DNA of 64,000 bases, taken from Candidatus Omnitrophica bacterium UBA6253. Its GTDB lineage: Bacteria > Omnitrophota > Gorgyraeia > Gygaellales > Profunditerraquicolaceae. Numbering within the stretch: position 1 is the stretch's first letter; each line of letters begins with the position of its first letter. The notes beneath the pieces were generated by a model. The model made no database searches and had not been told where the DNA came from. It worked only from the letters and a program-made list of their open reading frames with translations. Made by a program: the position numbers and the translations under genes. The DNA lies in contig DJVP01000012.1 of NCBI GenBank assembly GCA_002441245.1, forward strand, positions 260,255 to 324,254. The letters are read 5' to 3'. This document shows, in pieces, positions 1 to 16,842 of this stretch.

Positions 1-1037
1 TCAAATTTTACCCCCTCCTCTTTGGCATGCTCAATCTCCAGTCGCCTGGCGGGCATTTCAATCTCCGTGCGCCGATAAATAACCTTAGTATTAAGCACAA
101 GGCCGTTTATCTTCTGCAGCCTCAAAGCAACTCTAGCGGCATCCATAGCTGTATTTCCTCCGCCAACAATCAAAACATTCTTACCTATATTGACCGGCGT
201 GTGAAATTCAGGGAACTTGTAAGCGGACATTAGATTCACCCGGGTCAAAAACTCATTTACCGAATAAATATTACAAAGGTTTTCGCCTTTAATTCCTAAA
301 AAAGAAGGCACTCCGGCTCCCAACCCCAGGAATATTCTTGAATATCCCTGGGCAAATAATTCTTTAATCGTCCTGGCTTTTCCTACCAGGAAATTAGTAA
401 TAAAATTTACGCCTAGTTTCTGAAGGTAATTTATCTCAAAATCCAGGACGTCCCATGGCAGCCTGAAAGGCGGAATACCGTATCTTAAAACGCCGCCGGT
501 TTTATGCAGGCTTTCATAAATATCAACCTGTACGCCTTTACGGGCTAATTCTCCGGCACAGCATAACCCAGCTGGGCCGGAACCAACTACCGCCACTTTA
601 ACTTTAGAGAATTTTTCCTCAATTTCTACCGGAACATCCAAATTATTATTCTTGCCGTAATCTCCCGCAAAACGTTCCAGAAAATGTATATTAATTGCCT
701 GCTCCGAAGCAAAAGGCAAGCCTTTCTTAGTAAGTATACATGCCTTACGGCATTGGTATTCAGCAGGACAAACCCTTCCACAAATAGAAGGAAAATTACT
801 CTTCTCTCTGATCGTAAAATAAGCGGACTGGTAATCCTGTTGAACAATCTGGTGGATAAATTTTTTTATATCAATACCCACCGGACAGCCACTGCTGCAA
901 AGAGGATTTTTACACTGCAGGCACCTTGAAGCTTCCAATAAAGCCTCATCTTCAGAGTAGCCTTTTACTACCTCCTCAAAATTGCCTGCTCTTATTTCGG
1001 CGCTGGCCTCTCTAACTTTTACCGGTTCCTTCTTCAT
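1..1037 (-). CDS. nfnB: NfnB / GltD-family FAD-NAD(P)H oxidoreductase with an N-terminal 2x[4Fe-4S] domain; sulfide dehydrogenase SudA-like. The 3' end runs off the window.
   Basis: The ORF track omits it because no stop falls inside the window. Manual reverse-complement translation from the ATG at 1035-1037 gives MKKEPVKVREASAEIRAGNFEE...CLQCKNPLCSSGCPVGI...FPSICGRVCPAEYQCRKAC...VAVVGSGPAGLCCAGELARKGVQVDIYESLHKTGGVLRYGIPPFRLP. That shows the GltD/NfnB cysteine motifs and a GxGxxG dinucleotide fold. It starts 5 nt downstream of nfnA. Confidence 0.8.
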   Translation of the reverse strand, partial: MKKEPVKVREASAEIRAGNFEEVVKGYSEDEALLEASRCLQCKNPLCSSGCPVGIDIKKFIHQIVQQDYQSAYFTIREKSNFPSICGRVCPAEYQCRKACILTKKGLPFASEQAINIHFLERFAGDYGKNNNLDVPVEIEEKFSKVKVAVVGSGPAGLCCAGELARKGVQVDIYESLHKTGGVLRYGIPPFRLPWDVLDFEINYLQKLGVNFITNFLVGKARTIKELFAQGYSRIFLGLGAGVPSFLGIKGENLCNIYSVNEFLTRVNLMSAYKFPEFHTPVNIGKNVLIVGGGNTAMDAARVALRLQKINGLVLNTKVIYRRTEIEMPARRLEIEHAKEEGVKF

Positions 1038-1041
1038 AGAT

Positions 1042-1872
1042 TTAAGATGCTGGAAAAAGGTTACAGATATGTTTTTCCTGTACGCTATAAACTTTATTTC
1101 TTTTCTCAAGTTCCTCCCAATCCACTCCATGTCCGTCAAAATCCGGGCCGTCAACGCAACTGAATTTTACCTGGCCGAAAACACTCACCCGGCAACAACC
1201 GCACATTCCGGTTGCATCAACCATCAACGCATTAAGAGAAACTAAAGTTTTAGTATTGTATTCCCTGCTTACAGCTGCCACTCTTTTCATCATCGGAATA
1301 GGCCCAACAGAATAGATCAAATCATATTTATCTTTATCCAGAAGCTCCTTTAGCATATCCGTGGTAAAACCTTTCCTGCCGTAAGAGCCATCATCCGTCA
1401 TGATATAAATTTGATCTGATGCGCCTTTAAGTTCAGCCTCCAAAATAAGCAAATCTTTATTACGGGATCCTAAAATAGCAGTTATATGATTGCCTGCATC
1501 CTTTAATGCGCGGGCAACTGGCAAGATCTCAGCTATTCCTACGCCTCCGCCGGCTAAAATTACTTTTCCGAACTTTTTTATTTCTGTAGGGTGCCCCAAA
1601 GGGCCAACCAGGGCATAGAGGCTATCTCCGGCATTAAGTGCGCCTAAAAGCCGCGTAGTTAATCCTGCCTCCTGAAAAATAAGAGTAATACTGCCTGCAT
1701 TAATATCCACATCGACTATAGTAAGCGGGACTCTTTCGCCTCTTTCATCAACCATAACTACAACGAATTGCCCTGGCTTAGCCTTTTGGCTGATTTCCGG
1801 AGCAATCAAGGATAATTTTATAATCCTTACGCCTGCAGAATCTATAATTGCTTCTCTGGATATAATCTTCAT
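1042..1872 (-). CDS. nfnA: NfnA / PyrK-like FAD plus [2Fe-2S] ferredoxin-NADP+ reductase subunit (SudB-like)
   Basis: 276 aa. It has the PyrK/SudB architecture: FAD/NAD-binding core (ILAGGGVGIAEI) and a C-terminal cysteine cluster CGCCRVSVFGQVKFSCVDGPDF. It lies immediately upstream of the GltD-like nfnB. Confidence 0.8.
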   Translation of the reverse strand: MKIISREAIIDSAGVRIIKLSLIAPEISQKAKPGQFVVVMVDERGERVPLTIVDVDINAGSITLIFQEAGLTTRLLGALNAGDSLYALVGPLGHPTEIKKFGKVILAGGGVGIAEILPVARALKDAGNHITAILGSRNKDLLILEAELKGASDQIYIMTDDGSYGRKGFTTDMLKELLDKDKYDLIYSVGPIPMMKRVAAVSREYNTKTLVSLNALMVDATGMCGCCRVSVFGQVKFSCVDGPDFDGHGVDWEELEKRNKVYSVQEKHICNLFPAS

Positions 1873-1904
1873 ATTTGCCCTCTTTGCCTGTTTATATATT
1901 TGTA

Positions 1905-3143
1905 CTACTTTCTAATGGTTTTGTCAAACTCCATATCCAATTTTACCAGGCCGCCCTTAAACGGTTCAATTATCCGTTCAAGAATTCCGGATAGATAAGC
2001 CATCAGCACGCCATAATTAGTAATCGCAACGCCTGCGGACCTGGCCTTTTCAATACGATGCATAATTTCTTTACGGTTAACCATGCATCCTCCACAGGAG
2101 ATAATTATCTTATACCGGCTTAAATCCTGGGGAAAATCTCCTCCCGCAGTGACTTCATAATGCAGGTCTTTCCTGGTGTAATTCATCAACCAGGTAGGAA
2201 TTTTGGTACGACCGATATCTTCCGGCTGCACATGATGTGTACAAGCCTCAGCTATCAGGATCTCATCGCCATCTTTTAATTTCTCCAAGGCATAAACACC
2301 CTGGATATAAACATTGAGGTCTCCTTTATGCCTGGCAAAAACAGTGGAGAATGATGTCAAGGGCACTTCCACGGGAAGAATATCACGCACATCCTCGAAA
2401 ACCTGTGAATCAGTAATTACAAGTTTTGGCTTCTTTTTTAATGCATTAATACAATCTAAAAGTTCAGTTTCTTTGGTAACAAAGGCAACAGCGTTAGCAT
2501 CTAAAATATCCCGTAACACCTGCACCTGGGGGAGGATTAATCTTCCTTGAGGCATGGCACTATCAATTGGGCAAACCAAAATTACCACATCTTTAGGGCT
2601 AATTATATCAGCTACCAGAGGGATAGGCGACCAATGGCCAGGAGCCATCTCCATTATTTTCTCTTTAAGCTCCTCAATTGCCTGTTTTGTTTTAGAGCTT
2701 ACCCTGATAAATGGAAGCTTTTTATCTATTAAATAATCCTCCGCCCTTTTCCCCTGCAGTTCACCTTTATTGATTACAAACAGAAAAGGCAACTTTTTGC
2801 TGCGGAAGGTATTAATTAAATCCTCTTCAAAACTATCAATCATCGTATCCGGCTCAACAACAATTAAACCCACATCCGTCTTTCTTAATACCACCAGGGT
2901 ACGCTTAACCCTCTCCTCGCCTAAAACCCCCTCATCGTCAATACCGGCAGTATCAATTAATATACATGGCCCAATAGGTAAAATCTCCATAGCCTTATAA
3001 ACCGGGTCTGTAGTTGTCCCGGCTACCTCAGAAACGATTGCCGTATCCTGACCGGTAATCGCATTAATCAAACTGGATTTCCCCGTGTTCCTTTTACCGA
3101 ATATTCCAATATGCAGCCTGTTGCTTGCCGGTGTCCTATACAT
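1905..3143 (-). CDS. hydF: [FeFe] hydrogenase maturase GTPase HydF
   Basis: 412 aa. N-terminal GTPase domain with P-loop GKRNTGKSS and DTAG. The C-terminal region carries the cysteine-containing cluster-binding part. It sits between hydE and nfnA. Confidence 0.88.
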   Translation of the reverse strand: MYRTPASNRLHIGIFGKRNTGKSSLINAITGQDTAIVSEVAGTTTDPVYKAMEILPIGPCILIDTAGIDDEGVLGEERVKRTLVVLRKTDVGLIVVEPDTMIDSFEEDLINTFRSKKLPFLFVINKGELQGKRAEDYLIDKKLPFIRVSSKTKQAIEELKEKIMEMAPGHWSPIPLVADIISPKDVVILVCPIDSAMPQGRLILPQVQVLRDILDANAVAFVTKETELLDCINALKKKPKLVITDSQVFEDVRDILPVEVPLTSFSTVFARHKGDLNVYIQGVYALEKLKDGDEILIAEACTHHVQPEDIGRTKIPTWLMNYTRKDLHYEVTAGGDFPQDLSRYKIIISCGGCMVNRKEIMHRIEKARSAGVAITNYGVLMAYLSGILERIIEPFKGGLVKLDMEFDKTIRK

Positions 3144-4206
3144 TTGAATTAATCCTCCCTTGTTTTAAAGAGTCAGCTTTTGAATAATCAATAAACCTTC
3201 CTAGACCTTTAGCCATCTCATCCATACAAAAGTTACATGCGCCTTGCGGCTCATCAATACATCTCTTTTGGGGATATATCTCATAGAGCTTACGGAATGG
3301 TTGTGGAGTAAAATTCGGCATTAAAACATTTGCCCCGCACTTTAAACCATCCATTCTGTAATCTCTATCCAGACTGCCCAAGGCAGTCGTAGCAGGGATA
3401 TGCGCATTTTTAGTAACTATGCGGGTCAAGGCAATGGTTTTTAAACTAAGTTCAACATTACCCTTTTGCTGACCGGCAAACTGAGTATCCTGATGAGGAA
3501 TAAACGGGCCTATGCCGATCATATCAAAATCATTGCGTTTAAAGAAAATAATATCATGAGAGATGGTCTTTAAGGTTTGCCCGGGTAGGCCGATAATATT
3601 ACCTGAGCCAACCTGATAACCTAATCTCCTTAGAACCTGCAGGCAATCCAGGCGCTGCTTAAAATCCATTTGCGGATGCATAGATGAATATAAGGCCCCA
3701 TCGGTAGTTTCAATTTTCAATAAATACCTGTCAGCGCCGGCCTCTCGCCAAATCCTATAATCATCCCCGCTTCTTTCTCCCACCGAAAGAGTAACCGCTA
3801 TGTCAAAACTTGATTTTATTTTTAAGATAATATCTCTTAGCCATAAAACATCCAAACCTTCATCTTCTCCGGACTGTAAAACCACTGTCATAATCTTACG
3901 CGAAGCAAGATATTCAACTGCCTTAAGCAACTCATCCTTATCTATCCGGTAGCGCTCCAACTTACGGTTATTCTTATTCAGACCGCAATAAAAACACTCC
4001 CGCAGGCAAAAGTTAGAAAACTCTATTATCCCCCGCAAAACAATGCCATTTCCGCAAAACTTTTTTCTCACAGTATCGGCAAAAGAAAACAACTCATTTA
4101 ATTCTTCCTGCCTGTCTAAAGCTAAAACCCGCTCCAAGTCTTCAGGTTCTGGCAGAGAAACGTCGTAGATTCTATTTAAAAGCCCGTTTAGTTTAGACAT
4201 ATTCAT
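3136..4206 (-). CDS. hydE: [FeFe] hydrogenase maturase radical-SAM HydE
   Basis: 356 aa. Biotin-synthase-like radical SAM enzyme with CxxxCxxC as CLRECFYC. Its ends overlap hydG and hydF. Confidence 0.88.
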   Translation of the reverse strand: MNMSKLNGLLNRIYDVSLPEPEDLERVLALDRQEELNELFSFADTVRKKFCGNGIVLRGIIEFSNFCLRECFYCGLNKNNRKLERYRIDKDELLKAVEYLASRKIMTVVLQSGEDEGLDVLWLRDIILKIKSSFDIAVTLSVGERSGDDYRIWREAGADRYLLKIETTDGALYSSMHPQMDFKQRLDCLQVLRRLGYQVGSGNIIGLPGQTLKTISHDIIFFKRNDFDMIGIGPFIPHQDTQFAGQQKGNVELSLKTIALTRIVTKNAHIPATTALGSLDRDYRMDGLKCGANVLMPNFTPQPFRKLYEIYPQKRCIDEPQGACNFCMDEMAKGLGRFIDYSKADSLKQGRINSNV

Positions 4207-5623
4207 CTCTTAAACCGGAATCAACATGCAAAAAAAACAATTTCAGCATTTCTTGTTCAACAGGTTCTAACTGCTTAAAATAATGCCCGATCATTTTATA
4301 ACCCGCATCTTTAACCGCAACAGACGCAAAATCATCGAGATACTCCTTAAGCGTTATCAGGGCATTCATACTACATTTGCCTTTAATTGTCCCGGGCTTA
4401 GCCATCTGCATAAAAGCCTCTCCGGTCCTTTCTTTGCGATAACAGGCGGCGCAAAAAGAAGGAATATAGTCGTGCGCAATCAAAGAAGCAACGACTTCCT
4501 CAATAGTACGATTATCGCCAAGAGAAAACTGGCTTCCGGCCTTTTCGGAAACCATGCCGGCTTTTTCGGCAGGGATACCAGTACCAGCATCCCTGTTATC
4601 AGAATATCCTCCGGGCGAAGTAGAAGATTCCGCGCTGACCTGCGAAACCCCAAGGCCAAGAAGCGCGTCGCGCATAACAGCAGACTCACGGGTAGACATA
4701 ATAATGCCGGTGTATGGCACGGAAAGCCTTAAAACAGCAACTACCTTTTTAAAATCTTCATCCGAAATCTTATGCGGCGGATTAAAAGAAAGCATTGCTC
4801 CTTCTGCCGGTTCAATGCGCGGCACGGATATTGTATGCGGGCCAACATTAAACTCCTTTTCCATATGCTCTATATGGGAAAGCAACCCCAGTGTCTCAAA
4901 CCTCCAGTCATATAAACCATAAAGCGGCCCAATACCAATATCATCAATTCCAGCGGCAAAAGCCCTGTCCGGTGCACTGATCCGGTTATCCGGGTCACTC
5001 TTTGGGCCGCTAAGATGCATCGCCCGGTAAGTCTGGTCATGGTAGGTTTCCTGAAAGATTTGAAAAGTCCCGATACCGGAGGCCTTCAATTTTTTAAAAT
5101 CACCGACGCTTAACGGCGCACAATTGACATTAACCCTTTTAATTTTATGTTTACCTATTGCCGCTTCGTAAATAGTTTCAACCGCCTGGACATAATAATC
5201 GATGTTTGACTGTCCTGCAGGTGATGCCTCTCCGCAAACTGCCAATATCCTCTTATGCCCGCGCCTTAGGAGCCACTGGATTTGCTGGGTAATTTCGGAA
5301 GTAGTAAGCGCCTTGCGTTTAAGTCCTGAGTTATCCGATTTGAAACCGCAGTATTGACAGTTATTCACGCAAAGATTGCTGATATAAAGCGGCGCAAAAA
5401 GCACTACCCTCCTGCCATAAACAGCATCCTTAACAAAACTGGCCGCCTTGAATATCTTCTGGATATATTCAGGATCCTTGACCGAAAGCAAGGCCGCAGA
5501 CTCCTCCAATGTTAAACGTTTAAGTGATTTTGTTTTCTCAAGAATGGCATCAAGCTTAAGGCTATCAAACTTATCCATATCAGCAAGCAAATTATTTATC
5601 TTCTCTTCATTTATGTATTTCAA
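4193..5623 (-). CDS. hydG: [FeFe] hydrogenase maturase radical-SAM tyrosine lyase HydG
   Basis: 476 aa. ThiH-like radical SAM enzyme with N-terminal CVNNCQYC and a C-terminal auxiliary cluster region (SFCAACYR). It forms a contiguous hydGEF set with its neighbours. Confidence 0.88.
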   Translation of the reverse strand: MKYINEEKINNLLADMDKFDSLKLDAILEKTKSLKRLTLEESAALLSVKDPEYIQKIFKAASFVKDAVYGRRVVLFAPLYISNLCVNNCQYCGFKSDNSGLKRKALTTSEITQQIQWLLRRGHKRILAVCGEASPAGQSNIDYYVQAVETIYEAAIGKHKIKRVNVNCAPLSVGDFKKLKASGIGTFQIFQETYHDQTYRAMHLSGPKSDPDNRISAPDRAFAAGIDDIGIGPLYGLYDWRFETLGLLSHIEHMEKEFNVGPHTISVPRIEPAEGAMLSFNPPHKISDEDFKKVVAVLRLSVPYTGIIMSTRESAVMRDALLGLGVSQVSAESSTSPGGYSDNRDAGTGIPAEKAGMVSEKAGSQFSLGDNRTIEEVVASLIAHDYIPSFCAACYRKERTGEAFMQMAKPGTIKGKCSMNALITLKEYLDDFASVAVKDAGYKMIGHYFKQLEPVEQEMLKLFFLHVDSGLRDEYV

Positions 5624-5672
5624 AATTCACCTCGTTCGATAACAGATATAATGGCTGAACAGGATCCGCTAA

Positions 5673-5924
5673 CTATTCGGATTTGCTTAATCCTGATTTT
5701 ACCGACACCCCGCCGATCTTGCCCAGTTTACCGGTTAAGGCGCCTAAATCATCGGTAGACGCGTTTACAATCAATACAATTACGCTTAACTCCCTCTTCA
5801 CATGAGGAATCCCCATACGCCCGAGAATCAGCTCCCCGAATTCCGTCAAAATACTATTAACTAGCGGAGCGGACTTTTTACGGTTATGAATAATAACCCC
5901 CACAAATCCTAAACGCTTTTCCAT
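5673..5924 (-). CDS. Small TM1266-like protein, the putative iron-only hydrogenase system regulator family
   Basis: The track ORF 5673..6026 starts at TTG and its first 34 codons read through the tandem repeats. An internal ATG at 5924 is preceded by AAAGGAGATAGGG and gives an 84-aa protein, MEKRLGFVGVIIHNRKKSAPLVNSILTEFGELILGRMGIPHVKRELSVIVLIVN..., which has the typical size of this family. It is positioned between the hydrogenase structural genes and hydG. Confidence 0.5.
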   Translation of the reverse strand: MEKRLGFVGVIIHNRKKSAPLVNSILTEFGELILGRMGIPHVKRELSVIVLIVNASTDDLGALTGKLGKIGGVSVKSGLSKSE

Positions 5925-5952
5925 CCCTATCTCCTTTCTTATAAAAATCCGC

Positions 5953-6042
5953 CACCAGGCGGACACCCGTGCAATTCCAATTAGCACGGGGTGCCAGACA
6001 CCAGGCGGACACCCGTGCAATTCCAATTAGCACGGGGTGCCA
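5953..6042. repeat. Two tandem copies, 46-nt period, of a 44-nt unit. Each unit contains an imperfect hairpin: CACCCGTGC, then 12 nt, then GCACGGGGTG.
   Basis: caccaggcggacacccgtgcaattccaattagcacggggtgcca occurs at 5953-5996 and again at 5999-6042. The copies are identical except for the last 1-2 nt. Direct reading. Confidence 0.85.
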
Positions 6043-6057
6043 AACGCTGAATGTCCT

Positions 6058-6120
6058 CTAAAAATAAAAAACCCAACCCTTCTTAAAAAATAATCCTGCA
6101 GAAAGATTGGGATGTTGCAT
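6058..6120 (-). CDS. Candidate 20-codon leader ORF (MQHPNLSAGLFFKKGWVFYF)
   Basis: On the minus strand, AAGGGAGGATGA precedes ATG CAA CAT...TAG. The ORF lies between the hydA stop and the tandem hairpins. It may be fortuitous. Confidence 0.2.
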   Translation of the reverse strand: MQHPNLSAGLFFKKGWVFYF

Positions 6121-6181
6121 TCATCCTCCCTTGGGTATAGAGCCGCTTTCCGGTCCTTACCGCAGGATTCATTATTTGTTT

Positions 6182-7933
6182 CTATTTTATGTAAACCGGC
6201 CTGGCCTTATAATGCACATGCAGAAGTTTTTCCGACTTCTCGCTCAAGGGCTTGCCTAGAAATTCTTTATAAAGCCTTTTTATATACGGATTCTGATGAC
6301 TGCAACGAATCTGTTTTTGATCATCATCCTGATACAATGCCTGAGCCCTTTTAATCCTTAGTTCATCTGTAACCATATAAGGCTGGCCGCCGCCGCCAAC
6401 ACATCCGCCCGGGCAAGCCATAACTTCAATAAAATGATACGGCATTTCTTTATTATTAAGCTTGGCCTCGCGCACCTTATTTAAAATATGTTCCACATTG
6501 CCCAAACCATGGGCAATAGCAATCTTGAGTTTCTTGCCGTCAACCTCAATCTCAGTTTCCTTAACGCCCTTTAAGCCACGGACGCTAACAAACTCCACAT
6601 TTTTTAATTCTTTACCAGTAACAAAATAATGCGCGGTCCTTAAAGCTGCTTCCATTACACCGCCGGTTGACCCAAAAATAACCCCTGCGCCGGCATATTC
6701 GCCTAAAATACTATCGCACTCCTCATCGGGCAGAGTATCAAAATCTATGCCTGCCTGTTTAATCATGCGTACCAACTCCCTGGTACAGAGAACTGTATCT
6801 ATATCCTGAAAGCCCGAAGCAGACATTTCTGCATTCCTGGTAATCTCATATTTCTTAGAAGTGCAAGGCATAATTGAAACCATAAAAATCTTGGCAGGGT
6901 CAATTTTATTCTTTTCTGCATAGTACGTCTTGGAGAGTACACCTAAAATTTCATGCGGGGATTTACAGGAAGAAAAATGTTCAATCATATCCGGATAGAA
7001 CTTTTCCATAAAATCTACCCAGGAAGGACAGCAGGAGGTAATTAAAGGCAGTGGCCTATTCCCATGTAAAAGCCTTTCCTCAAACTCGCTTGCTTCCTCC
7101 ATAATCGTAACATCTGCGGCAAAAGAGGTATCAAAAACCGCATGGAACCCTAAGCGTCTTAATAAAGCGTAAAGTTTCTTGGTAAAATTCTTGCCCACAT
7201 AACCAAAGGCCTCTCCTATAGATACCCTGACTGCAGGGGCAATCTGCACCACGCAATATTTATCCGGATCCATCAGCCCCTTCCAGACTTTGGCTGTATG
7301 ATCCTGTTCAACAAAGGCACCCGTAGGGCAATGCGCTGAGCACTGCCCGCACTTAACACAAGGAGAATCGGCTAATTGTATATCCCCGGCAGGAGAAATC
7401 CGGGTTTTCATCCCTCTTTCCAAAAATGACAAAGCCCAGACATCCTGCAGCTCCTGGCAAACATGCACACATCTGCCGCAAAGAATACATTTTTTAGGAT
7501 CAAGGTCTACGGCGCTAGTTGAAGTGTCTATCGGTAAATCCCTTAAATACTGCGGGAATGATTCATCTTTAATTCCGAAATCCGCGGTAAGTTTTTGCAA
7601 CTCACACTGATTATTCCTGGCACATTTAAGGCAATCATTGGGATGGTTGGATAAAATAAGTTCAATTACCGTCCTGCGAATTTCAACTATTTCCGGGTCA
7701 TGCGTAATAATATCCATCCCCTCATCCAGCGGAGTACAGCAGGAACGCAGCATCTTATGCGACCCCTTATTCTTTACAATACAAATACCGCAGGATGCTG
7801 AAGCAGGCAGGTCCGGATGTTTGCATAAAGTAGGGATTTTTATCTGCACCCTCTTAGCCGCCTCTAAAATAGTAGTGCCTTCTTCTACCCGCAATAAAAT
7901 TCCGTTTATTCTTGCCTTAATTATTTTTGCCAT
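6182..7933 (-). CDS. hydA: [FeFe] hydrogenase catalytic subunit, Hnd-type HndD/HydA with M3 architecture
   Basis: 583 aa. N-terminal 2Fe-2S ferredoxin domain, His-ligated [4Fe-4S] (HPNDCLKC) and two ferredoxin-type clusters. All three H-cluster motifs are intact: L1 TSCCPSW, L2 MPCTSKKYE, L3 EVMACPGGCVGGGGQP. Confidence 0.92.
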   Translation of the reverse strand: MAKIIKARINGILLRVEEGTTILEAAKRVQIKIPTLCKHPDLPASASCGICIVKNKGSHKMLRSCCTPLDEGMDIITHDPEIVEIRRTVIELILSNHPNDCLKCARNNQCELQKLTADFGIKDESFPQYLRDLPIDTSTSAVDLDPKKCILCGRCVHVCQELQDVWALSFLERGMKTRISPAGDIQLADSPCVKCGQCSAHCPTGAFVEQDHTAKVWKGLMDPDKYCVVQIAPAVRVSIGEAFGYVGKNFTKKLYALLRRLGFHAVFDTSFAADVTIMEEASEFEERLLHGNRPLPLITSCCPSWVDFMEKFYPDMIEHFSSCKSPHEILGVLSKTYYAEKNKIDPAKIFMVSIMPCTSKKYEITRNAEMSASGFQDIDTVLCTRELVRMIKQAGIDFDTLPDEECDSILGEYAGAGVIFGSTGGVMEAALRTAHYFVTGKELKNVEFVSVRGLKGVKETEIEVDGKKLKIAIAHGLGNVEHILNKVREAKLNNKEMPYHFIEVMACPGGCVGGGGQPYMVTDELRIKRAQALYQDDDQKQIRCSHQNPYIKRLYKEFLGKPLSEKSEKLLHVHYKARPVYIK

Positions 7934-9678: not shown

Positions 9679-9697
9679 AAATTAATTATTCCCGTTT

Positions 9698-10045
9698 TTA
9701 AATCAATACCTCAAAGATATAATCATTTACTAACATTTTAGAAATCACATGTTTTTCAAGTATTTTAGTGGCTATATCCTTATTCACTGAACCGTAGATT
9801 ACCGAAGGCAGGCCCTCTACATTTACCTCAACCAAAGGCTCAGCATAGCACATACCCGCGCAACCGCATTTTTTAATTTCAATTTGAAGGTTGCGCTTCT
9901 TTACCTCTTCGACAAAAAAATTAAAAACTTCATCTGCGCCGGCAGCAATACCGCAACTGCTTAAGCCAACCTTAATCCAATCTTTAGGCTTATCAGAAGG
10001 GGCCTTACTCATTTTATCTAAATCAGCGGGAGAAAGTTTATTCAT
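9698..10045 (-). CDS. hndB: Small thioredoxin-like [2Fe-2S] ferredoxin subunit (HndB-like)
   Basis: 115 aa with SSCGIAAG...KCGCAGMC. This is the size and position of HndB in tetrameric Hnd hydrogenases. Confidence 0.7.
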   Translation of the reverse strand: MNKLSPADLDKMSKAPSDKPKDWIKVGLSSCGIAAGADEVFNFFVEEVKKRNLQIEIKKCGCAGMCYAEPLVEVNVEGLPSVIYGSVNKDIATKILEKHVISKMLVNDYIFEVLI

Positions 10046-10051
10046 AATATA

Positions 10052-10525
10052 TTATTCCTCTTTAATATATTTTGACAAGATATCCGCTACCTCATTTTTC
10101 TTTACCTTGCCATAAACCTTATTATCAATCATTACTACCGGAGCCAAACCGCAACAACCAAGGCACCTGACGACATCCAGGTAAAAAAGACCGTCTTTAG
10201 TAGTCTGCCCCTCTTTGATACCTAATATATTTTTTATTTCATCCAGGATTACCGCCGCCCCCCGTAAATAACAAGCTGTCCCCATACATAGGGCAATACG
10301 ATGTTTTCCGGGAGGGATCAATTTAAAGAAATTATAAAAAGTGATCACTTCATAGATCCTGGCCAGCGGGACATCCAGCATTTTGGATAATTCCAATGAT
10401 AGCTCCCTCGGGACATAACCATGATGGTTCTGGATCTCATGCAGAATCATGATTAAGTTGCCTTCTTTACCCTTCCATTGCTGGACAAGGCTGACTAATT
10501 CTGGATTAAGTTTTTTATGTTCCAT
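10052..10525 (-). CDS. hndA: NuoE-like 24-kDa [2Fe-2S] subunit (HndA/HydC)
   Basis: 157 aa. NuoE signature CMGTACYLRG...CLGCCGLAPV. Confidence 0.88.
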   Translation of the reverse strand: MEHKKLNPELVSLVQQWKGKEGNLIMILHEIQNHHGYVPRELSLELSKMLDVPLARIYEVITFYNFFKLIPPGKHRIALCMGTACYLRGAAVILDEIKNILGIKEGQTTKDGLFYLDVVRCLGCCGLAPVVMIDNKVYGKVKKNEVADILSKYIKEE

Positions 10526-10669
10526 GTTTGAAATTTCTAAGAATATTATCTTGCCGGTTTGATCCTTAAGTTCTTAACTTGGCTTACTGAAGATGGGCCA
10601 AAAACAAGAAGCTCGTAGATTAGCGTAAAAATTTTATCATATCTTTCCTAAAAGGCAAGGGAAATTTTA

Positions 10670-12448
10670 CTAAAGCACTCCTTCTCTTTTTTTGTAATAC
10701 GTGTGCAACAAATGGTGCGATTTCTCTCCTAAGGGCTGGCCCAAGAATTCCTTGTATAAAGCCTGTACAGCAGGATTTTCATGTGATTTCCTCAGGGGCT
10801 TATTTTTATCCTCGCGATAAATTGCCTCCATCCTCTTTAGCCTGATCTCATTATTTGTAGGGATCGGCTGCCCTGCGCCTCCCAGGCATCCGCCGGGACA
10901 AGTCATAATCTCAATAAATGCATAAGGCGAACGGCCTTCTTCAATCTCTTCTAATAATACGCGCGCATTGCTTAAGCTATTTGCCACAGCCACCTTTAGA
11001 TTCAACCCGTCAATATCTATGTCGGCAACTTTAATGCCGTTAAGACCCCTTAGATTCATAAAATCAAGCTTTTCCAATTGCCTGCCAGTAAGCACCTCAT
11101 AGGCTGTCCTTACCGCAGCTTCCATTACTCCGCCGGTTGCCCCGAATATTACCGCGGCCCCTGTAGAAATACCCAAAGGCTCATCAAAATCTTCACCCGG
11201 GAGATTTATAAAATTTATCCCCGCCTCTTTAATCAAACGGCTGGCTTCCCGGGTAGTCAAGACATAATCCACATCCCTAAAAGCCTCGTCTTCCTTAAGG
11301 GCCATTTTATTCTTCCAATAATCGAATGCGCTTTGCATTTCTGGCCGGGATGCCTCAAATTTCTTGGCAGTACAAGGCATAATTGAAACAACTATTATAT
11401 TCCTGGGGTCAATATTATATTTCTCGGCATAATAAGTCTTGGCGACTGCACCAAACATTTGCTGAGGAGATTTACAGCTGGAAATATTCCCTAATATCCC
11501 GGGGAAGAAATGCTCGGCAAATTTTATCCACCCCGGAGAACAGGAGGTTATCATGGGAAGTATGCCCTTGTTCTTAATCCGTTGGATCAACTCATAACCT
11601 TCTTCCATAATCGTCAGGTCTGCTGAAAACTGAGTATCAAAGACTTTCGCAAAGCCTAATTTGCGTAACCCCTGGGCCAGTTTAGCTGTAACCAGGCTAC
11701 CTGCAGGCATACCAAACTCTTCGCCAATTGCCGCCCTTACCGCCGGAGCAACCTCAACAACAACAAATTTTTTGGGGTCAGATAAAGCATGCCAAACTTC
11801 CTCTATGGCATTTTTTTCAATGATTGCGCCAGTAGGGCACACTAAAAGACATTGACCGCAGTTAACGCATACGCTGTTTGCCAGGCCGGAATCAAAAAAT
11901 GTAGTTACCTTGCTGGACTTGCCGCGTCCGGAAAAATCAATCGCTTTTACACTCTGAATAGCCGAACACACAGAAACGCAACGGCCACACAAAATACATT
12001 TATTAGGATCACGGGATAAAGATACTGATGTAGCATCCAGGGGTAACTCTGTTTTCGTTGTCTTGGGAAACCTCACCTCTCTTATCCCCATATCAAAAGC
12101 TAGCTTTCTTAATTCACACGACTGGTTTCTGTCGCAGACAAGGCAGTCTTTGGGATGGCCTGCTAAAAGCAGCTCCAGATTCAACCTTCTGGCATTTCTT
12201 ACGCGCTCGGTATTCGTAAAAATCTCCATACCTTCTTTGATGGAAGTAACACATGAACGCAACAAGGTTTTAGCTCCCTTAACCTCAACTAAACAAATTG
12301 AACAGGCAGCTTCCTGATTGATATCTTTTAGATAACAAAGCGTAGGGATATCAATGGCAGCTTTTGCGCAAGCCTCCAAGATAGTCATGCCGGCATCGCA
12401 TTCATAAACCTTGCCGTCAATCTTTAAAGAAACCTTCTTATCTTCCAT
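10670..12448 (-). CDS. Second HydA-type [FeFe] hydrogenase large subunit with an atypical L1 motif
   Basis: 592 aa with the same M3 domain order as hydA. L2 MPCTAKKFE and L3 EIMTCPGGCLGGAGQP are intact. L1 reads TSCSPGW. The second Cys of the canonical TSCCPxW is Ser304, codon TCT at about 11537-11539. Confidence 0.85.
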   Translation of the reverse strand: MEDKKVSLKIDGKVYECDAGMTILEACAKAAIDIPTLCYLKDINQEAACSICLVEVKGAKTLLRSCVTSIKEGMEIFTNTERVRNARRLNLELLLAGHPKDCLVCDRNQSCELRKLAFDMGIREVRFPKTTKTELPLDATSVSLSRDPNKCILCGRCVSVCSAIQSVKAIDFSGRGKSSKVTTFFDSGLANSVCVNCGQCLLVCPTGAIIEKNAIEEVWHALSDPKKFVVVEVAPAVRAAIGEEFGMPAGSLVTAKLAQGLRKLGFAKVFDTQFSADLTIMEEGYELIQRIKNKGILPMITSCSPGWIKFAEHFFPGILGNISSCKSPQQMFGAVAKTYYAEKYNIDPRNIIVVSIMPCTAKKFEASRPEMQSAFDYWKNKMALKEDEAFRDVDYVLTTREASRLIKEAGINFINLPGEDFDEPLGISTGAAVIFGATGGVMEAAVRTAYEVLTGRQLEKLDFMNLRGLNGIKVADIDIDGLNLKVAVANSLSNARVLLEEIEEGRSPYAFIEIMTCPGGCLGGAGQPIPTNNEIRLKRMEAIYREDKNKPLRKSHENPAVQALYKEFLGQPLGEKSHHLLHTYYKKREGVL

Positions 12449-15400
12449 TTATTTTCCCTCTTTGATATCGCACCTTAAACATCTATTTACTTCAACAATG
12501 GCCTGTTTTAATGACAATCCCAAAGAAACTTCCCTAAAGTTATTCCGCCGCTTATTTATCCCCAGCTTCCCGCCGTCTAATCTCTTAGACACTTTTGGTT
12601 CTAAGGGGATTTCAGATTTATAAGTAAACTTACGGAATAACTTGGCAAACCTGTCTTCCGAACTTAACGCCAGATCAATAATCCTGGCAGCTTTCTTACC
12701 GTCAGACATTGCCTCTACTGCCGTTGCCGGGCCCATGACTAAATCCCCCCCGGCATAAACCTTATCCAAACTGGTCTTTAAATCAAACCTGCCTGCCTTA
12801 ACTGTCCCATTCTGGTTAACCAAAATACCGCAACCCTTAATAAACTCTGCGTCTACTTTTTCTCCAATTGCCAGAATTACAGTATCGCAAGGAATTTCAA
12901 AAAACTCATCAGTAGCTACAGGCCTTCTCCTTCCGGAAAGATCATAATCTCCCAATATCATCCTGGTTGCAATCAAACCCTTTAATCTGCCGCGGGGATT
13001 ACCCTGTATAGCTTTGGGACTGGCTAAAAATATAAACTTGACACCTTCAGATTCAGCCCCTTTAATTTCATCTTTATTCGCAGGCATATCCGTTTTTTCT
13101 CTCCTGTAGACAATGGTCACTTCACTGCCAAACCTTAAGGCCGTACGCGCGGCATCCACCGCAACATTTCCGGCGCCAATTACCAAAACTTTTTTGCCGA
13201 TAAGCGGCTCTTTGCCGACCGCCACGTCCTTTAAGAATTCAGTACCCGATAACACGCCTTTTAAACCTTCTCCCGGAATACCTAAACCCATATTTTTATA
13301 AGCCCCCGTTGCCAAAAATACGGCATCCGCCCCTTTAATCTTTTTGTTTAAATTATCTGCGTTAATTTTCTTATTGCATAAAATTTTTGCCCCCATCTCC
13401 TGTATAAAAGCAATTTCTTTCTTTAGCACTGCCTTAGGCAGGCGGTATTCGGGAATACCATAACGCAAAACCCCACCGGCTTCAGGATTAGCTTCATATA
13501 TGATAACATCGTGACCAAGCCGGCTAAGGTAAAAAGCCGCAGTTAACCCGCAAGGACCTGCGCCGACAATACAGATCTTCTTGCCTGTCTTCGGCAACCG
13601 TTCTTTTGCTAAACGCTCAATTATCCTTGCCTCCCTACCGGTTTTATATACCTGGTCTGCAATATACCTATGAATTTCACCCTGAGAAACCGGATAATCA
13701 ATATCTTCCCTGCGGCAGCGCATCTTACAATGGAAATGACAGATCCTGCCGCTGGAAGAAGGAAAAGGATTGTCCCGAATAACACACTCAAACGCTTCAA
13801 TAATTTTCCCTTCCTTAAATAACTCCAGAAACCCCGGGATATTCATGTGCAATGGGCAGCTATTCTCACAGGGGGAAACAAAAAGATCCGAACATACTCC
13901 GCCGTCACAACGCTGCTCTTTAATATGCTCCTCGTATTCACCTCTAAAATATTTAAGTGTAGTAAGTACGGGATTTGGCCCGGTTTGCCCTAATCCGCAA
14001 AGGGCGGTGTCTTTAATCACTGCCCCTAAATCCTGCAAACCCTGAATATCATCCTGGATGGCTTTTCCCTTTGTAATATTAGTCAGGATATTCAAACTCT
14101 GGGTCAGCCCTTCCCGGCAGGGGGTACACTTACCGCAAGACTCACTGGTTGTAAATTCCGTAAAATAACGCGCCACATCAACCATGCAATTATCATCATC
14201 CATTACCACCATTCCGCCTGAGCCCATGATCGCCCCTAAGGAAGCCAAGGTCTCATAATCAATCGGAGTATTAAATAGCGATGCGGGGATACATCCTCCT
14301 GAGGGACCGCCGCTCTGCACAGCCTTGATCTTTTTATTTGTACCGGTACCTGCGCCAATATTATATATAAGGGTCTGCAAAGTTGACCCTAGGGGCAATT
14401 CTACCAAACCTGTATTTTTTATCTTGCCTACAAGAGAAAAAACTTTAGTCCCGGAACTATTTTGAGTACCAGTCTGCGTAAACCAATCCGCCCCTTTTGC
14501 AATAACAACCGGGATATTGCTCCAGGTTTCAACGTTATTAATATTAGTGGGTTTGCCCAAATATCCTTTTTGCGCAGGAAACGGCGGGCGGGGATGCGGT
14601 CTTCCTGATTTACCCTCAAGCGAAGAGATCAGTGCCGTCTCCTCTCCGCAGACAAATGCACCGGCACCTTCCACTAACTGCAGGTTAAAAGAAAAACCAC
14701 TATTAAATATATTGTCGCCAAGTAAACCAAAACTACGGGCATCGGCAATTGCTTTTCTTATCCGCTCTACCGCCAAAGGATATTCTGCGCGCACATAAAT
14801 AACTCCCCTAGAAGCCCCCATAGCATAGGCACCGATAATCATCCCCTCTAAAAGCATGTGCGGATCGCTCTCACTTTCATTACGATTCATATATGCTCCG
14901 GGATCGCCTTCATCAGCGTTACAGATTATATATTTCTCCTCTTGGCCCTCCTTACGCATTAATTCCCATTTTAATCCGGTAGGAAAACCTGCCCCTCCCC
15001 TACCCCTTAACTTTGATTTTTTTACCTCTGCAATTACGGCTTCAGGCTTAAGGTCTCTTAAAACAGTCAGTAAAGCCCGGTATCCGCCTACAGCGATATA
15101 CTCTTCTATATCCTCCGGGTTAATCAAACCGCAATCCCTTAAAACAATCTTTTTTTGCCACTTAAAAAATGGGGTTTTATTCCAATCAGGTATCTGCTCA
15201 AACCCTTTGCCGTAAGAGATTTGGCCGGTGAGATGGTCCCATGTCTCAATTTTACATAAAGCCCTTCTGGGATTAATATTGTTACGGGCAAGCCCCCTAA
15301 CTATAGAATCTGCTTCTTTGGGCAAAACACGATTTAGAATAACCAAAGGCTTACCTGGCAAAGAAATATTGACTAAGGGCTCCTGAGAGCAAAAACCAAA

Positions 15401-15616
15401 ACAACCTACCTTGGTCAATAGTGCCGGCATCTTTCTTTTGGCAAGTGCAACCTTAAAAGCAGAAAATAGCTCTTGTGCGCCGTTACCAATACCACAAGTC
15501 CCCATACCCACTGCGATACGCAAGTTTTTAGGTAATAATTTCGCCATCCCTTTTTCTTTAACCAGCTTTAAATCTTCGGCGTTTTTAATGATCATTTCTT
15601 GTTTCTCCGCAAGCAA
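12449..15616 (-). CDS. Fusion protein. The N-terminal part is a NuoF-like flavoprotein (HydB: 2Fe-2S, FMN/NADH site, N3 cluster). The C-terminal part is a complete GltD/NfnB-like module (2x[4Fe-4S] plus FAD plus NAD(P)H).
   Basis: 1055 aa. Residues up to about 560 carry GRGGAGFPTGLKW and ESCGKCTPCREG. No C-terminal ferredoxin domains follow. Instead a GltD-type N-terminal Fe-S domain appears (CENSCPLHMNIPGF...GRICHFHCKMRC), followed by two Rossmann motifs: ICIVGAGPCGLTAAFYL...GGVLRYGIPEYRLP and VLVIGAGNVAVDAARTALRFG. Confidence 0.85.
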   Translation of the reverse strand: MLAEKQEMIIKNAEDLKLVKEKGMAKLLPKNLRIAVGMGTCGIGNGAQELFSAFKVALAKRKMPALLTKVGCFGFCSQEPLVNISLPGKPLVILNRVLPKEADSIVRGLARNNINPRRALCKIETWDHLTGQISYGKGFEQIPDWNKTPFFKWQKKIVLRDCGLINPEDIEEYIAVGGYRALLTVLRDLKPEAVIAEVKKSKLRGRGGAGFPTGLKWELMRKEGQEEKYIICNADEGDPGAYMNRNESESDPHMLLEGMIIGAYAMGASRGVIYVRAEYPLAVERIRKAIADARSFGLLGDNIFNSGFSFNLQLVEGAGAFVCGEETALISSLEGKSGRPHPRPPFPAQKGYLGKPTNINNVETWSNIPVVIAKGADWFTQTGTQNSSGTKVFSLVGKIKNTGLVELPLGSTLQTLIYNIGAGTGTNKKIKAVQSGGPSGGCIPASLFNTPIDYETLASLGAIMGSGGMVVMDDDNCMVDVARYFTEFTTSESCGKCTPCREGLTQSLNILTNITKGKAIQDDIQGLQDLGAVIKDTALCGLGQTGPNPVLTTLKYFRGEYEEHIKEQRCDGGVCSDLFVSPCENSCPLHMNIPGFLELFKEGKIIEAFECVIRDNPFPSSSGRICHFHCKMRCRREDIDYPVSQGEIHRYIADQVYKTGREARIIERLAKERLPKTGKKICIVGAGPCGLTAAFYLSRLGHDVIIYEANPEAGGVLRYGIPEYRLPKAVLKKEIAFIQEMGAKILCNKKINADNLNKKIKGADAVFLATGAYKNMGLGIPGEGLKGVLSGTEFLKDVAVGKEPLIGKKVLVIGAGNVAVDAARTALRFGSEVTIVYRREKTDMPANKDEIKGAESEGVKFIFLASPKAIQGNPRGRLKGLIATRMILGDYDLSGRRRPVATDEFFEIPCDTVILAIGEKVDAEFIKGCGILVNQNGTVKAGRFDLKTSLDKVYAGGDLVMGPATAVEAMSDGKKAARIIDLALSSEDRFAKLFRKFTYKSEIPLEPKVSKRLDGGKLGINKRRNNFREVSLGLSLKQAIVEVNRCLRCDIKEGK

Positions 15617-16140
15617 ATACCTTTTATAATTTTTCGTAATTTCTCCGAGTTCATCCGGCTGTAAATATTGCCGTCTATCTCAACTACCGGTGCCAGCGCG
15701 CACTGACCAAAACAGGCAACGGTTTTAATCGTAAATTTATTATCCTTGGTAGTTAGAAATGACTTACCGTCTTGGCTGAAATCATCCTCTTTAAAACCGA
15801 ATAGATTAATTAAGAAATCCAAAAGGTTTCTTGACCCCCGGGTATGGCATGCCGTACCCCGGCAGACAATAATTGAATGTTCCCCCTGCGGCGTAAGATT
15901 AAAAAAAGCGTAGAAGGTAATAATATTATAAATCCTGGACAAGGGTACCTTGGTTTTGGCGGCAATATATTCTAAATCATCCTGGGCAAGATATTTATGC
16001 TGATTTAGCTTCTGGGCATCTTCTAATATTCCCAAAAGCCTTCCCGGCTTACCAGCATATCCAGAGATAACTCTATCTAATTCTGCCCTATCTAAACTAG
16101 CCTTTGAAATTTTATTTCCTTTTAACGCAACCCTGTTCAT
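15592..16140 (-). CDS. NuoE-like [2Fe-2S] subunit (HydC) of the second hydrogenase
   Basis: 182 aa with CRGTACHTRG...CFGQCALAPV. It overlaps the start of the fusion gene by 25 nt. Confidence 0.85.
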   Translation of the reverse strand: MNRVALKGNKISKASLDRAELDRVISGYAGKPGRLLGILEDAQKLNQHKYLAQDDLEYIAAKTKVPLSRIYNIITFYAFFNLTPQGEHSIIVCRGTACHTRGSRNLLDFLINLFGFKEDDFSQDGKSFLTTKDNKFTIKTVACFGQCALAPVVEIDGNIYSRMNSEKLRKIIKGICLRRNKK

Positions 16141-16158
16141 CTCTTCCTTTAATATATA

Positions 16159-16785
16159 TTATTTGGTCTTTTCTGTTACATTAACAAAATAAATAAGGTT
16201 CTCTAATTCAATCTCCAGGTTAACATTATTAATGATGCAGCCTTCGGCGGCCTTAAGCCCTAACGGCGCAAAATTAAGTATCCCCTTTATTCCCGAAACA
16301 CAAATTAAATCAGCGGCCTGTTGGGCAGCGATATCCGGCACAGCTAAAATAGCTATGCGTATGCCATTAGATTTTACAAAAGCCTTGACTTCCTCTAAGG
16401 GTAGAACCGGAACAGGGCTAGAGCGGTTAATCTTAGCCGGATCAATATCAAAACCGGCAACGATTTTTATGCCTTCCTTTTCAAATCCCCGATACCGCAT
16501 AAGCGCGCTGCCAATATGTCCGGCACCGACAACAATAACCTTTTGCAACTGGTCCTTGCCGAGGATGCTATTTAATTTTTCAAGCAGTGAATCAATCTGG
16601 TACCCCCCTTTTTTATTACCGGAGATACCAAAGATTGAGAAATCTTTTCTTACCTGAGAGGCAGTTCCTCCTACGGCATCTGCCAGGTTATCTGAGAAAA
16701 CTTTCACAAAACCCAAGGTTTGTAATCTGTAAAGAGCGTTTTTATATCGGGAAAGCCGAATGATGCAGTTCTTATTAGTAATCAT
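16159..16785 (-). CDS. rex: Redox-sensing transcriptional repressor Rex
   Basis: 208 aa. N-terminal winged HTH (IIRLSRYKNALYRL) and Rossmann NADH domain VIVVGAGHIGSAL. It ends 18 nt upstream of the hydC-like gene. Confidence 0.88.
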   Translation of the reverse strand: MITNKNCIIRLSRYKNALYRLQTLGFVKVFSDNLADAVGGTASQVRKDFSIFGISGNKKGGYQIDSLLEKLNSILGKDQLQKVIVVGAGHIGSALMRYRGFEKEGIKIVAGFDIDPAKINRSSPVPVLPLEEVKAFVKSNGIRIAILAVPDIAAQQAADLICVSGIKGILNFAPLGLKAAEGCIINNVNLEIELENLIYFVNVTEKTK

Positions 16786-16786
16786 T

Positions 16787-16842
16787 TTGTTCTATTTTTC
16801 ACAATAACAAGATCAATATAACATCTTCAGTTTATTTGTCAA
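16787..16842 (-). promoter_or_regulatory. Sigma70-type promoter with a Rex-box-like operator, in front of rex and hydrogenase operon 2
   Basis: On the minus strand: TTGACA (plus 16837-16842), a 16-nt spacer, TATATT (plus 16815-16820), then TTGTGAAAAATAGAACAA (plus 16787-16804). The operator compares to the Rex consensus TTGTGAA-N4-TTCACAA. One half-site is perfect and the other matches 4 of 7. It ends 1 nt before the rex ATG, and no Shine-Dalgarno sequence is visible. Confidence 0.4.

Follow-up and report, generated by a model that had tools for sequence, protein, structure and literature searches.

A redox gene block conserved in the lineage of an uncultured Candidatus Omnitrophota bacterium, with Rex in front and a candidate regulatory leader RNA ahead of the hydrogenase maturase genes

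The stretch of DNA analyzed here (the window) has 64,000 nucleotides and comes from Candidatus Omnitrophica bacterium UBA6253 (contig DJVP01000012.1, positions 260,255 to 324,254). One end of it carries a block of redox genes, running from rex, for a redox-sensing repressor, through two [FeFe] hydrogenases and their maturases to nfnAB. The locus raises the question of whether this block is a single regulatory unit, and which electron carriers its two hydrogenases would connect to H2. The Omnitrophota are uncultured, and their energy metabolism is known from genes only. The block is real and is conserved in this lineage. As a whole it is probably, though by no means certainly, best explained by two regulatory modules, a hydrogenase unit fronted by Rex and a unit of maturase and nfn genes gated by an RNA. 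It thus offers a testable regulatory model, with Rex in front and an RNA checkpoint ahead of the maturases. The Rex, Hnd, NfnAB and HydGEF parts belong to known families and are ordinary representatives of them. The leader RNA, and a hydrogenase whose BfuB-type subunit is fused to a GltD module (BfuB::GltD), are uncharacterized variants.

The block occupies positions 3–16842 on the minus strand, in the order rex, hydC, the NuoF::GltD fusion, hydA1, hndABCD, a TM1266-like gene, hydG, hydE, hydF and nfnAB. The genes were assigned with NCBIfam and Pfam profile searches, mostly above the curated cut-offs. All the identities named in an initial annotation, made from the letters of the sequence, were recovered on the minus strand where it had placed them. 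The genes are as follows.

16159–16785, minus strand: rex, redox-sensing repressor (NF003996, 241 bits against a cut-off of 138; Rossmann motif GAGHIG).
15592–16140, minus strand: hydC, NuoE/BfuC-like thioredoxin-like [2Fe-2S] protein (PF01257, 133 bits).
12449–15595, minus strand: hydB::gltD fusion, BfuB-like NuoF joined to a Nfn-Bfu-type GltD module (1048 residues as called in metagenome-assembled genomes, MAGs).
10670–12448, minus strand: hydA1, [FeFe] hydrogenase catalytic subunit (NF040763, 865 bits).
10052–10525, minus strand: hndA, NuoE-like (PF01257, 165 bits).
9698–10045, minus strand: hndB, small thioredoxin-like [2Fe-2S] protein (by size, position and cysteine pattern).
7936–9678, minus strand: hndC, NuoF-like (Complex1_51K, NADH_4Fe-4S, and Fer4 at residues 525–577).
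6182–7933, minus strand: hndD, [FeFe] hydrogenase catalytic subunit (NF040763, 795 bits; motifs TSCCPSW, MPCTSKKYE and MACPGGCVGGGGQP).
5673–5924, minus strand: TM1266-like putative regulator, 83 residues (TIGR03959, 96 bits; PF21699, 99 bits).
4193–5623, minus strand: hydG (TIGR03955, 452 bits, above cut-off).
3136–4206, minus strand: hydE (TIGR03956, 329 bits, above cut-off).
1905–3143, minus strand: hydF (TIGR03918, 553 bits, above cut-off).
1042–1872, minus strand: nfnA, NfnS/SudB-like FAD/NAD-binding subunit (NF004862, 364 bits).
3–1037, minus strand, cut by the window start: nfnB, NfnL/GltD-like (TIGR01316, 381 bits on the partial protein).

The comparison with related genomes that the initial annotation proposed bears out the block. 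The order from rex to hydF (rex-hydC-fusion-hydA1-hndABCD-TM1266-hydG-hydE-hydF) also holds in two further species of Omnitrophota, with fusion proteins 85% and 71% identical to that of the window. The genes upstream of rex differ in each of these species, being a group-4 [NiFe] hydrogenase-like cluster in one and unrelated genes in the other. Because the order recurs while the upstream genes vary, the block is no chance juxtaposition. At 65% fusion identity the order becomes ackA-nfnA-nfnB-hydC-fusion-hydA; that locus has neither rex nor hnd, and TM1266-hydG sits 6.7 kb downstream. The initial annotation had also pointed out the co-orientation of the genes. All genes of the block are indeed on the minus strand, but this carries no information, because almost the entire window is on one strand. 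All open reading frames of at least 180 residues in the window are on the minus strand except one, which is nested in a longer minus-strand frame, and the GC skew is negative across positions 1–64000.

The membrane-bound [NiFe] cluster lies at 1707–8698 of locus L087, the relative with the 85% identical fusion, directly upstream of rex and in place of the atp operon of the window. Its domains are Proton_antipo, NADHdh, Complex1_49kDa/NiFeSe and Oxidored_q6. With such a hydrogenase beside rex in a close relative, the earlier statement that every major route between H2, ferredoxin, NADH and NADPH lies in one block was too broad.

Two elements ahead of rex and one possible site within the block bear on the first module.

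16815–16842, minus strand: rex promoter, sigma70-like (TTGACA, 16 nt, TG-t-TATATT).
16787–16804, minus strand: candidate Rex operator TTGTGAAAAATAGAACAA, between the −10 element and the rex ATG, ending 1 nt before the ATG.
10631–10658, minus strand: possible internal promoter (TTGCCT, 16 nt, TG-a-TAAAAT) in the hydA1–hndA spacer, from a consensus scan, with weak evidence.

The product of rex belongs to the Rex family, and domains PF06971 and PF02629 are annotated for it in a contig of the same species. Its promoter is the top promoter-like match in a consensus scan of positions 1–19000, with 11 of 12 positions and an extended −10 element. Both hexamers are conserved in the Omnitrophota loci L087, L088 and L007. 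The left half of TTGTGAAAAATAGAACAA agrees perfectly with the Rex consensus TTGTGAANNNNTTCACAA, and all three of its mismatches fall in a degenerate right half (..AACAA). A box of the form TTGTGAAAA-N4-5-AACAA, ending at the start codon or at most 2 bases from it, is kept in the same three loci, and L087 has an additional second Rex box with one mismatch. The Rex protein of L007 is only 40% identical to that of the window, yet promoter and box are conserved. A near-palindromic box and a rex gene are also present in a fusion cluster of the Armatimonadota. The 18 bp from rex to hydC contain no terminator, and the genes hydC, fusion and hydA1 touch or overlap. The placement of rex at the head of the block is thereby upheld. 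Promoter and box, conserved in four loci, support control of the first unit by an NADH-responsive Rex and point to an autoregulated rex-hydCBA transcript.

Such regulation would be of a known kind, because in Caldicellulosiruptor bescii experiments have established that Rex controls [FeFe] hydrogenase genes, its own gene and a regulator-hydG operon (PMC6391272). In the Rex regulon of C. bescii and C. saccharolyticus, as proposed here, [FeFe] hydrogenase structural genes and rex are among the targets, and the operator is related to TTGTGAANNNNTTCACAA (PMC6391272). There are two differences. The Omnitrophota box has the degenerate right half and ends at the start codon. In addition, the regulator-hydG operon of C. 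bescii has its own Rex site, whereas a structured RNA and a terminator, with no box, are found at this position in the window. As the rex ATG follows immediately after the operator, about 25–30 nt from the −10 element, Rex on its operator would extend over the region of translation start as well. No recognizable Shine-Dalgarno sequence precedes rex (16785–16808) or hndA (10526–10545).

The initial annotation had placed the whole block under Rex. A motif search of the window found no Rex box ahead of hndA, the TM1266-like gene or nfnA, and a relaxed search of the whole window gave no convincing extra sites. Moreover, a conserved terminator and structured leader follow hndD. Because of the missing boxes and this terminator, Rex alone probably does not govern the whole block, and its regulation appears to be at least two-tiered.

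Three features lie between hndD and the TM1266-like gene.

6091–6172, minus strand: structured leader RNA, aptamer-like three-helix element of about 80 nt (covariance model, 55 bits, E=1.6e-11).
6066–6111, minus strand: intrinsic terminator CCCAAUCUUUCU ... AGAAGGGUUGGG followed by U6 (minimum free energy and centroid folds), overlapping the 3′ part of the leader.
5953–6042, minus strand: tandem repeat of hairpins, perfect 46 bp x 2 (Tandem Repeats Finder, 100% identity), between the terminator and the TM1266 ribosome-binding site.

The leader element starts about 10 nt after the hndD stop codon and is the single match of its covariance model in the window. Its sequence is conserved in all four Omnitrophota loci compared, though the flanking spacers have diverged. 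It has the form CCUGCGGUAAGGAG-loop-CUCUGAAnCCAAGGGrr-variable-UCCCAAyCUUUCUGCAGGA, then ..GGUUGGG and a U run. The covariance model was specified by hand from five seeds (Infernal). A scan of metagenomes for TM1266 homologues gave 80 loci of 60–100% identity, and in about 76 of the 80 (L090–L169) the element is located on the coding strand just upstream of the TM1266 gene. In the other Omnitrophota loci it lies at 19473–19549 (L087), 19253–19328 (L088) and 21551–21624 (L089). Named TM1266 clusters from the loci bearing the element are Candidatus Omnitrophota. L089 has no hydrogenase gene upstream of the element, which there has a promoter to itself; the element is therefore part of the TM1266 leader rather than of the hndD 3′ end.

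The fold is supported by covariation. For the 59 model-aligned matches, 92.9% of the cells are paired, compared to 87.8% after shuffling, and there are 40 double-change cells against 9.1 expected; neither value was reached in 500 shuffles. Sliding the pairing partner drops the paired cells to 25–61%. The P2 hairpin, with AU, UA, GC and CG pairs, holds most of the covariation. An alignment of 36 leaders with MAFFT and RNAalifold recovered P1 only, the variable loops being misaligned.

Of 58 leaders, 53 have a strong intrinsic terminator whose 5′ arm coincides with the 3′ part of the element (UCCCAAyCUUUCU), and the terminator stems co-vary. When the leader of the window is folded without a ligand, the terminator forms and P1 does not. 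The element thus has the structural marks of a riboswitch, a covariation-supported fold and an overlapping expression platform. Judged by its predicted folds, the architecture is that of an antitermination (ON) switch, and the leader RNA is a candidate for an antitermination riboswitch or a protein-dependent attenuator. It is similar to transcription-terminating riboswitches and attenuators in its multi-helix fold, in the 3′ strand shared with a terminator, and in its location in the leader of the operon that would be regulated. Unlike these, it matches none of the 4227 families of Rfam 15. No match was observed at E≤1 on 19 kb, and a 300-nt query at E≤10 gave only RybB, to the terminator alone (E=5.9). 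Nor did the model have a credible match in control hydrogenase loci of other phyla, 1.27 Mb in all, among them TM1266-bearing loci of Clostridia and Solobacterium. A literature search of incomplete coverage, by which absence is not proven, found no paper on a riboswitch linked to hydG, TM1266 or hydrogenase maturation.

Each copy of the 46-bp repeat folds as a hairpin (CACCCCGUGC...GCACGGGUG); at the end of the second copy is a further, terminator-like hairpin, GUCCGCCuggUGGCGGAU with U5. Among the loci compared (L087–L089), the exact duplication is found only in contigs of this species; looser GC-rich hairpins are present at the same place in other loci, for example L104 and L143. The hairpins between the terminator and the TM1266-like gene may add another layer of regulation. 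For the repeated TGGCAC a sigma54 promoter was considered and rejected, as by eye the spacing between its GG and GC elements is two bases shorter than the consensus.

With these elements, the first module would consist of rex-hydC-hydB::gltD-hydA1, probably continuing into hndABCD, behind a sigma70-like promoter whose 5′ untranslated region is the Rex operator. It would be repressed at low NADH/NAD+ and released as NADH accumulates. The second module would comprise the TM1266-like gene, hydG, hydE, hydF and nfnAB behind the leader RNA, which shares its 3′ half with the intrinsic terminator. By default, transcripts arriving from hndD would terminate at the leader. A small ligand or a protein that stabilizes the aptamer-like fold would block the terminator, and the maturase and nfn genes would then be read.

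The second half of the question concerns the electron carriers. The initial annotation had suggested that one hydrogenase is NAD-linked and the other NADP-linked. This is too simple, since the fusion protein retains a full NuoF module, for flavin mononucleotide (FMN) and NADH, in addition to a GltD module for NADP(H). The open reading frame with a TTG start has 1055 residues, and the MAG annotations begin 7 codons later. The Pfam domains are Complex1_51K, SLBB, NADH_4Fe-4S, Fer4_20 and Pyr_redox_2. Residues 26–572 are most similar to BfuB chains (9N5U_B, 650 bits; 7T2R_B, 9BOV_B, 7Q4V_B and 8OH5_B). Residues 574–1043 match the GltD domains in BfuA (9BOV_A 102–567, 8OH5_C 102–568 and 9N5U_A) and also the large subunit of NfnI (5JCA_L). 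The GltD part has GAGNVA (GxGxxA) and then YRR, the same as in the local NfnB. The GxGxxA motif has been read as NADP(H)-binding in the Stn enzyme (PMC7483475). Derivation of the GltD part from the local nfnB was rejected, as the two are only 33% identical.

In the solved Bfu enzymes, the low-potential path runs from cluster C1 to B3/B4 in the ferredoxin-like domain of BfuB, where ferredoxin docks (PMC12018979). The definition of the Bfu family (BfuABC, Schut et al. 2022) requires this 4Fe-4S ferredoxin-type domain (IPR017896, clusters B3/B4) in BfuB (PMC9304861). HndC has it, at residues 525–577. Pfam found no ferredoxin-type Fer4 dicluster domain in the C terminus of the fusion, where the NuoF domains are followed instead by the GltD Fer4_20. 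The remaining BfuBC flavobicluster elements are complete, with the NuoF FMN site, the B1 cluster and the NuoE C1 cluster. HydC (PF01257) and HydA1, with its N-terminal iron-sulfur domains, agree with BfuC and BfuA. The arrangement also falls outside two neighboring classes. In Nfn-Bfu/Stn, GltD lies inside a NuoG-like BfuA without an H-cluster, whereas here the module is on BfuB, and BfuA is the hydrogenase. The HydDB rule for group A2 (glutamate synthase-linked) [FeFe] hydrogenases asks for a neighboring gene with a GltD domain and without a NuoF domain (PMC5037454), and the neighbor here has both.

The fusion appears from its domains to keep the NADH/FMN site and to gain an NADP(H)/flavin adenine dinucleotide (FAD) site on the branch that normally serves ferredoxin. 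HydA1-HydB::GltD-HydC would then be a Bfu-type [FeFe] hydrogenase in which a GltD module with NADP(H), FAD and 2x[4Fe-4S] replaces the B3/B4 ferredoxin-docking domain, NADP(H) would take the ferredoxin branch, and H2 would be linked to both NAD(H) and NADP(H). By our own estimates of the physiological potentials, H2 could be formed jointly from NADH and NADPH only where its partial pressure is low. If the fusion enzyme were a ferredoxin-independent hydrogenase coupling NADH and NADPH to H2, it would to our knowledge be a type not described, yet encoded in many phyla. A literature search found nothing directly relevant on a NuoF-GltD fused HydB, although its coverage was incomplete and absence is not proven.

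With Nfn-Bfu/StnABC (Sporomusa ovata 8OH5, Caldicellulosiruptor saccharolyticus 9BOV and Thermococcus sibiricus 9N5U) the fusion enzyme shares the NuoE-like, NuoF-like and GltD building blocks and the type of GltD module (FAD, NADP(H) motif and two [4Fe-4S]), including the C-terminal Cys-x2-Cys segment. In these enzymes, however, BfuB keeps its ferredoxin-like domain, whereas GltD is on the BfuB C terminus here and BfuA is a true hydrogenase. With HydABC of Acetobacterium woodii (7Q4V/8A5E) and Thermoanaerobacter kivui (8A6T) the module shares an NuoE-like third subunit, and the NuoF part of the fusion matches HydB (597 bits). HydA1 aligns end to end with the A. woodii (7Q4V_A, 630 bits) and T. 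kivui (8A6T_A, 626 bits) proteins, and has Fer2_4, NADH-G_4Fe-4S_3 and Fer4 domains. The difference is in HydB, whose homologue here has a 480-residue GltD module instead of the C-terminal ferredoxin-like 2x[4Fe-4S] domain. The first H-cluster motif of HydA1, TSCSPGW, was considered as a mark of an unusual or sensory enzyme, and this was rejected, as the characterized HydA1 of A. woodii (7Q4V) has the same variant.

Several observations weigh against this picture of two modules and a ferredoxin-independent enzyme. Six matches with three mismatches to the Rex consensus are present in the window and 4.1 are expected by chance, so that TTGTGAAAAATAGAACAA alone is not significant, and the weight of the candidate box is carried wholly by its conserved position. 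The spacer between hydA1 and hndA (144 bp, 10526–10669) contains the extended −10 promoter-like site and is conserved in L087 (14927–15063), and this site could make the hnd genes a separate unit. Co-transcription of hydA1 and hnd is at least possible, given that in L088 the spacer is absent and the two genes overlap by 20 nt (14921–14940). For the leader, the alignment behind the covariation was fitted to the model. In addition, the CUUUCU tract pairs equally well with the 5′ GGUAA or with AAGGG; both pairings are more than 90% compatible, and the columns hardly vary. The fusion has non-hydrogenase partners elsewhere, so its role may be generic. The GltD clusters might also still pass electrons to ferredoxin, as in NfnSL, and for this reason replacement of the ferredoxin-like domain is no proof of ferredoxin independence.

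The leader could be read in other ways. If the hairpin after hndD were a leaky operon-internal terminator or an RNA-stability element, the block would be one long Rex-controlled operon. This would fit the position of rex and its conserved operator at the head, the short gaps without terminators at rex–hydC and hydF–nfnA, and the start of the leader so soon after the hndD stop codon that in the window a separate promoter would not fit between them. A plain terminator, however, would have no use for an upstream element of 80 nt in which helices covary and unpaired nucleotides are invariant. The element is also conserved across TM1266 homologues down to about 60% identity, and in L089 it has a promoter to itself and no hydrogenase gene ahead of it. 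We regard the single operon as improbable. A different possibility retains the switch and changes what it binds. The leader could be a protein-binding site, most plausibly for the TM1266-like protein, and serve autoregulation by attenuation, as is the case with PyrR or HutP. Every element found is directly upstream of a TM1266-family gene, though this association is partly built in, as the loci were collected through a TM1266 search. Annotations call the family a putative regulator, and the related 2NZC is a small uncharacterized protein; RNA-binding activity is not known for the family. The absence of the element from the Clostridia and Solobacterium TM1266 loci would fit lineage-specific co-evolution of protein and RNA, whereas ligand-binding aptamers typically have such a compact multi-helix junction, with strong conservation of the nucleotides in it. 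This protein-binding reading is somewhat unlikely on balance.

For the hydrogenase, the alternative is that the HydB::GltD complex is still a bifurcating enzyme dependent on ferredoxin and NADH, to which GltD adds an Nfn-like side entry for NADPH, giving a four-substrate hydrogenase-transhydrogenase. The two [4Fe-4S] clusters of NfnSL/GltD relatives lead to ferredoxin, as is known for the family, and the GltD part matches 5JCA_L. The retention of the complete flavobicluster elements and the adjacency of nfnAB to Bfu-type clusters in several phyla are also consistent with this model. In the solved Nfn-Bfu enzymes, on the other hand, GltD feeds the mid-potential path through BfuA, whereas here it is on BfuB, where the B3/B4 domain is missing. 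A built-in Nfn function would moreover be partly redundant with the separate NfnAB of the same block. We see the four-substrate enzyme as a tentative option, on the unlikely side. The specific claim that the leader is a new riboswitch class, licensing maturation (and nfnAB) in response to a redox or H-cluster-precursor metabolite, and that the fusion enzyme couples NADH and NADPH to H2 independently of ferredoxin, is itself unlikely to hold in all its parts.

Both variants have consequences beyond this locus. As an orphan structured RNA the leader is well supported; its terminator platform is clear and its gene association narrow and informative, which makes it a good candidate for ligand discovery. 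The current Bfu definition demands a ferredoxin-type domain that is absent from the widespread NuoF::GltD subunit. If NADP(H) does occupy the ferredoxin branch, the accepted list of reactions of bifurcating-type hydrogenases would grow, and metabolic reconstructions that label these genes as group A3 bifurcating would need revision.

Homologues of the fusion with at least 60% identity are found in Omnitrophota, Margulisiibacteriota and Bacteroidales. The subunit is widespread, being present in Omnitrophota, Bacteroidales, Acidobacteriota, Chloroflexota, Firmicutes, Desulfobacterota and one archaeon of the Asgard group. A species-level genome scan located fusions in one open reading frame in 53 loci from many phyla. 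The partners in these loci are H-cluster HydA proteins (at least 14), short BfuA-like proteins with iron-sulfur domains only (18), and long NuoG/Fdh-like proteins (9). NuoF::GltD is a general BfuB::GltD cassette. Tandem clusters of a fusion-type module and a classical NuoE/NuoF/HydA module recur in MAGs of Desulfobacterota, Clostridia, Verrucomicrobiota and Halanaerobiales.

Two variations of the cassette were also observed. In MAGs of Bryobacterales and other Acidobacteriota, of Polyangiaceae and of a Promethearchaeota (Loki) archaeon, the NuoE and NuoF::GltD pair is accompanied by an iron-sulfur partner of about 240 residues with no H-cluster (L009, L011–L013, L016, L057, L058, L068 and others). 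This short-partner form may be an alternative, undescribed Nfn-Bfu architecture. L036, L037 and L048 (Clostridia, Verrucomicrobiota and an unclassified MAG) have NuoE, (HndB), NuoF::GltD, NuoE, NuoF and a single HydA, an order in which a single hydrogenase subunit may be shared by two different flavoprotein modules.

The second hydrogenase of the window has the gene set of the Hnd type, with adjacent genes for an NuoE-like protein, a small [2Fe-2S] protein, an NuoF-like protein with a C-terminal dicluster, and an H-cluster subunit. The gene order A-B-C-D is the same as in Desulfovibrio fructosovorans, whose tetrameric electron-bifurcating hydrogenase has been described (PMC7483475). The NuoE-like HndA, the small thioredoxin-like [2Fe-2S] HndB and the H-cluster motifs of HndD are also shared, as is the NuoF-like HndC, with a 2x[4Fe-4S] ferredoxin-like domain at its C terminus and no cysteines in its N-terminal domain. 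HndB has weak matches to 2Fe-2S ferredoxins only and no Pfam match. Unlike the D. fructosovorans enzyme, the HndABCD of this other phylum is known from genes alone, and it is located directly downstream of a second, different hydrogenase. It is predicted to be an ordinary Hnd/HydABC-type hydrogenase, coupling NADH and ferredoxin to H2. HydA1 and HndD are 48% identical, the NuoF part of the fusion and HndC 57%, and the NuoE-like HydC and HndA 39%. The two modules differ, as had been proposed, and these values rule out a recent duplication; the hydrogenases are old paralogues.

The maturases HydG, HydE and HydF all have equivalog-level matches. For the TM1266-like gene, a frame of 117 residues from a TTG start is an over-extension, and 2NZC is the closest solved structure to its product. 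The hydF–nfnA gap is 32 bp, with no terminator seen. The full-length nfnB product has 470 residues in the Candidatus Omnitrophota MAG GCA_028712745.1. The adjacent genes for a small FAD/NAD-binding [2Fe-2S] subunit and a GltD-like large subunit agree with NfnAB, an assignment that does not distinguish Nfn from sulfide dehydrogenase (Sud). The predicted NfnAB would balance NADH, NADPH and ferredoxin.

Ahead of rex in the direction of transcription is the end of the atp operon.

17117–18517, minus strand: atpD, end of the atp operon, upstream of rex.
16863–17111, minus strand: short atpC, just ahead of rex.

The ATP synthase epsilon subunit encoded by atpC has 82 residues and consists of the N-terminal beta-sandwich only; the helical regulatory domain of the C terminus is missing. 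Every contig of this species has the subunit called at this length. Outside the hydrogenase block, a perfect tandem repeat of 12 bp x 3.1 (ACACTTAAGAAT) is located at 37882–37918.

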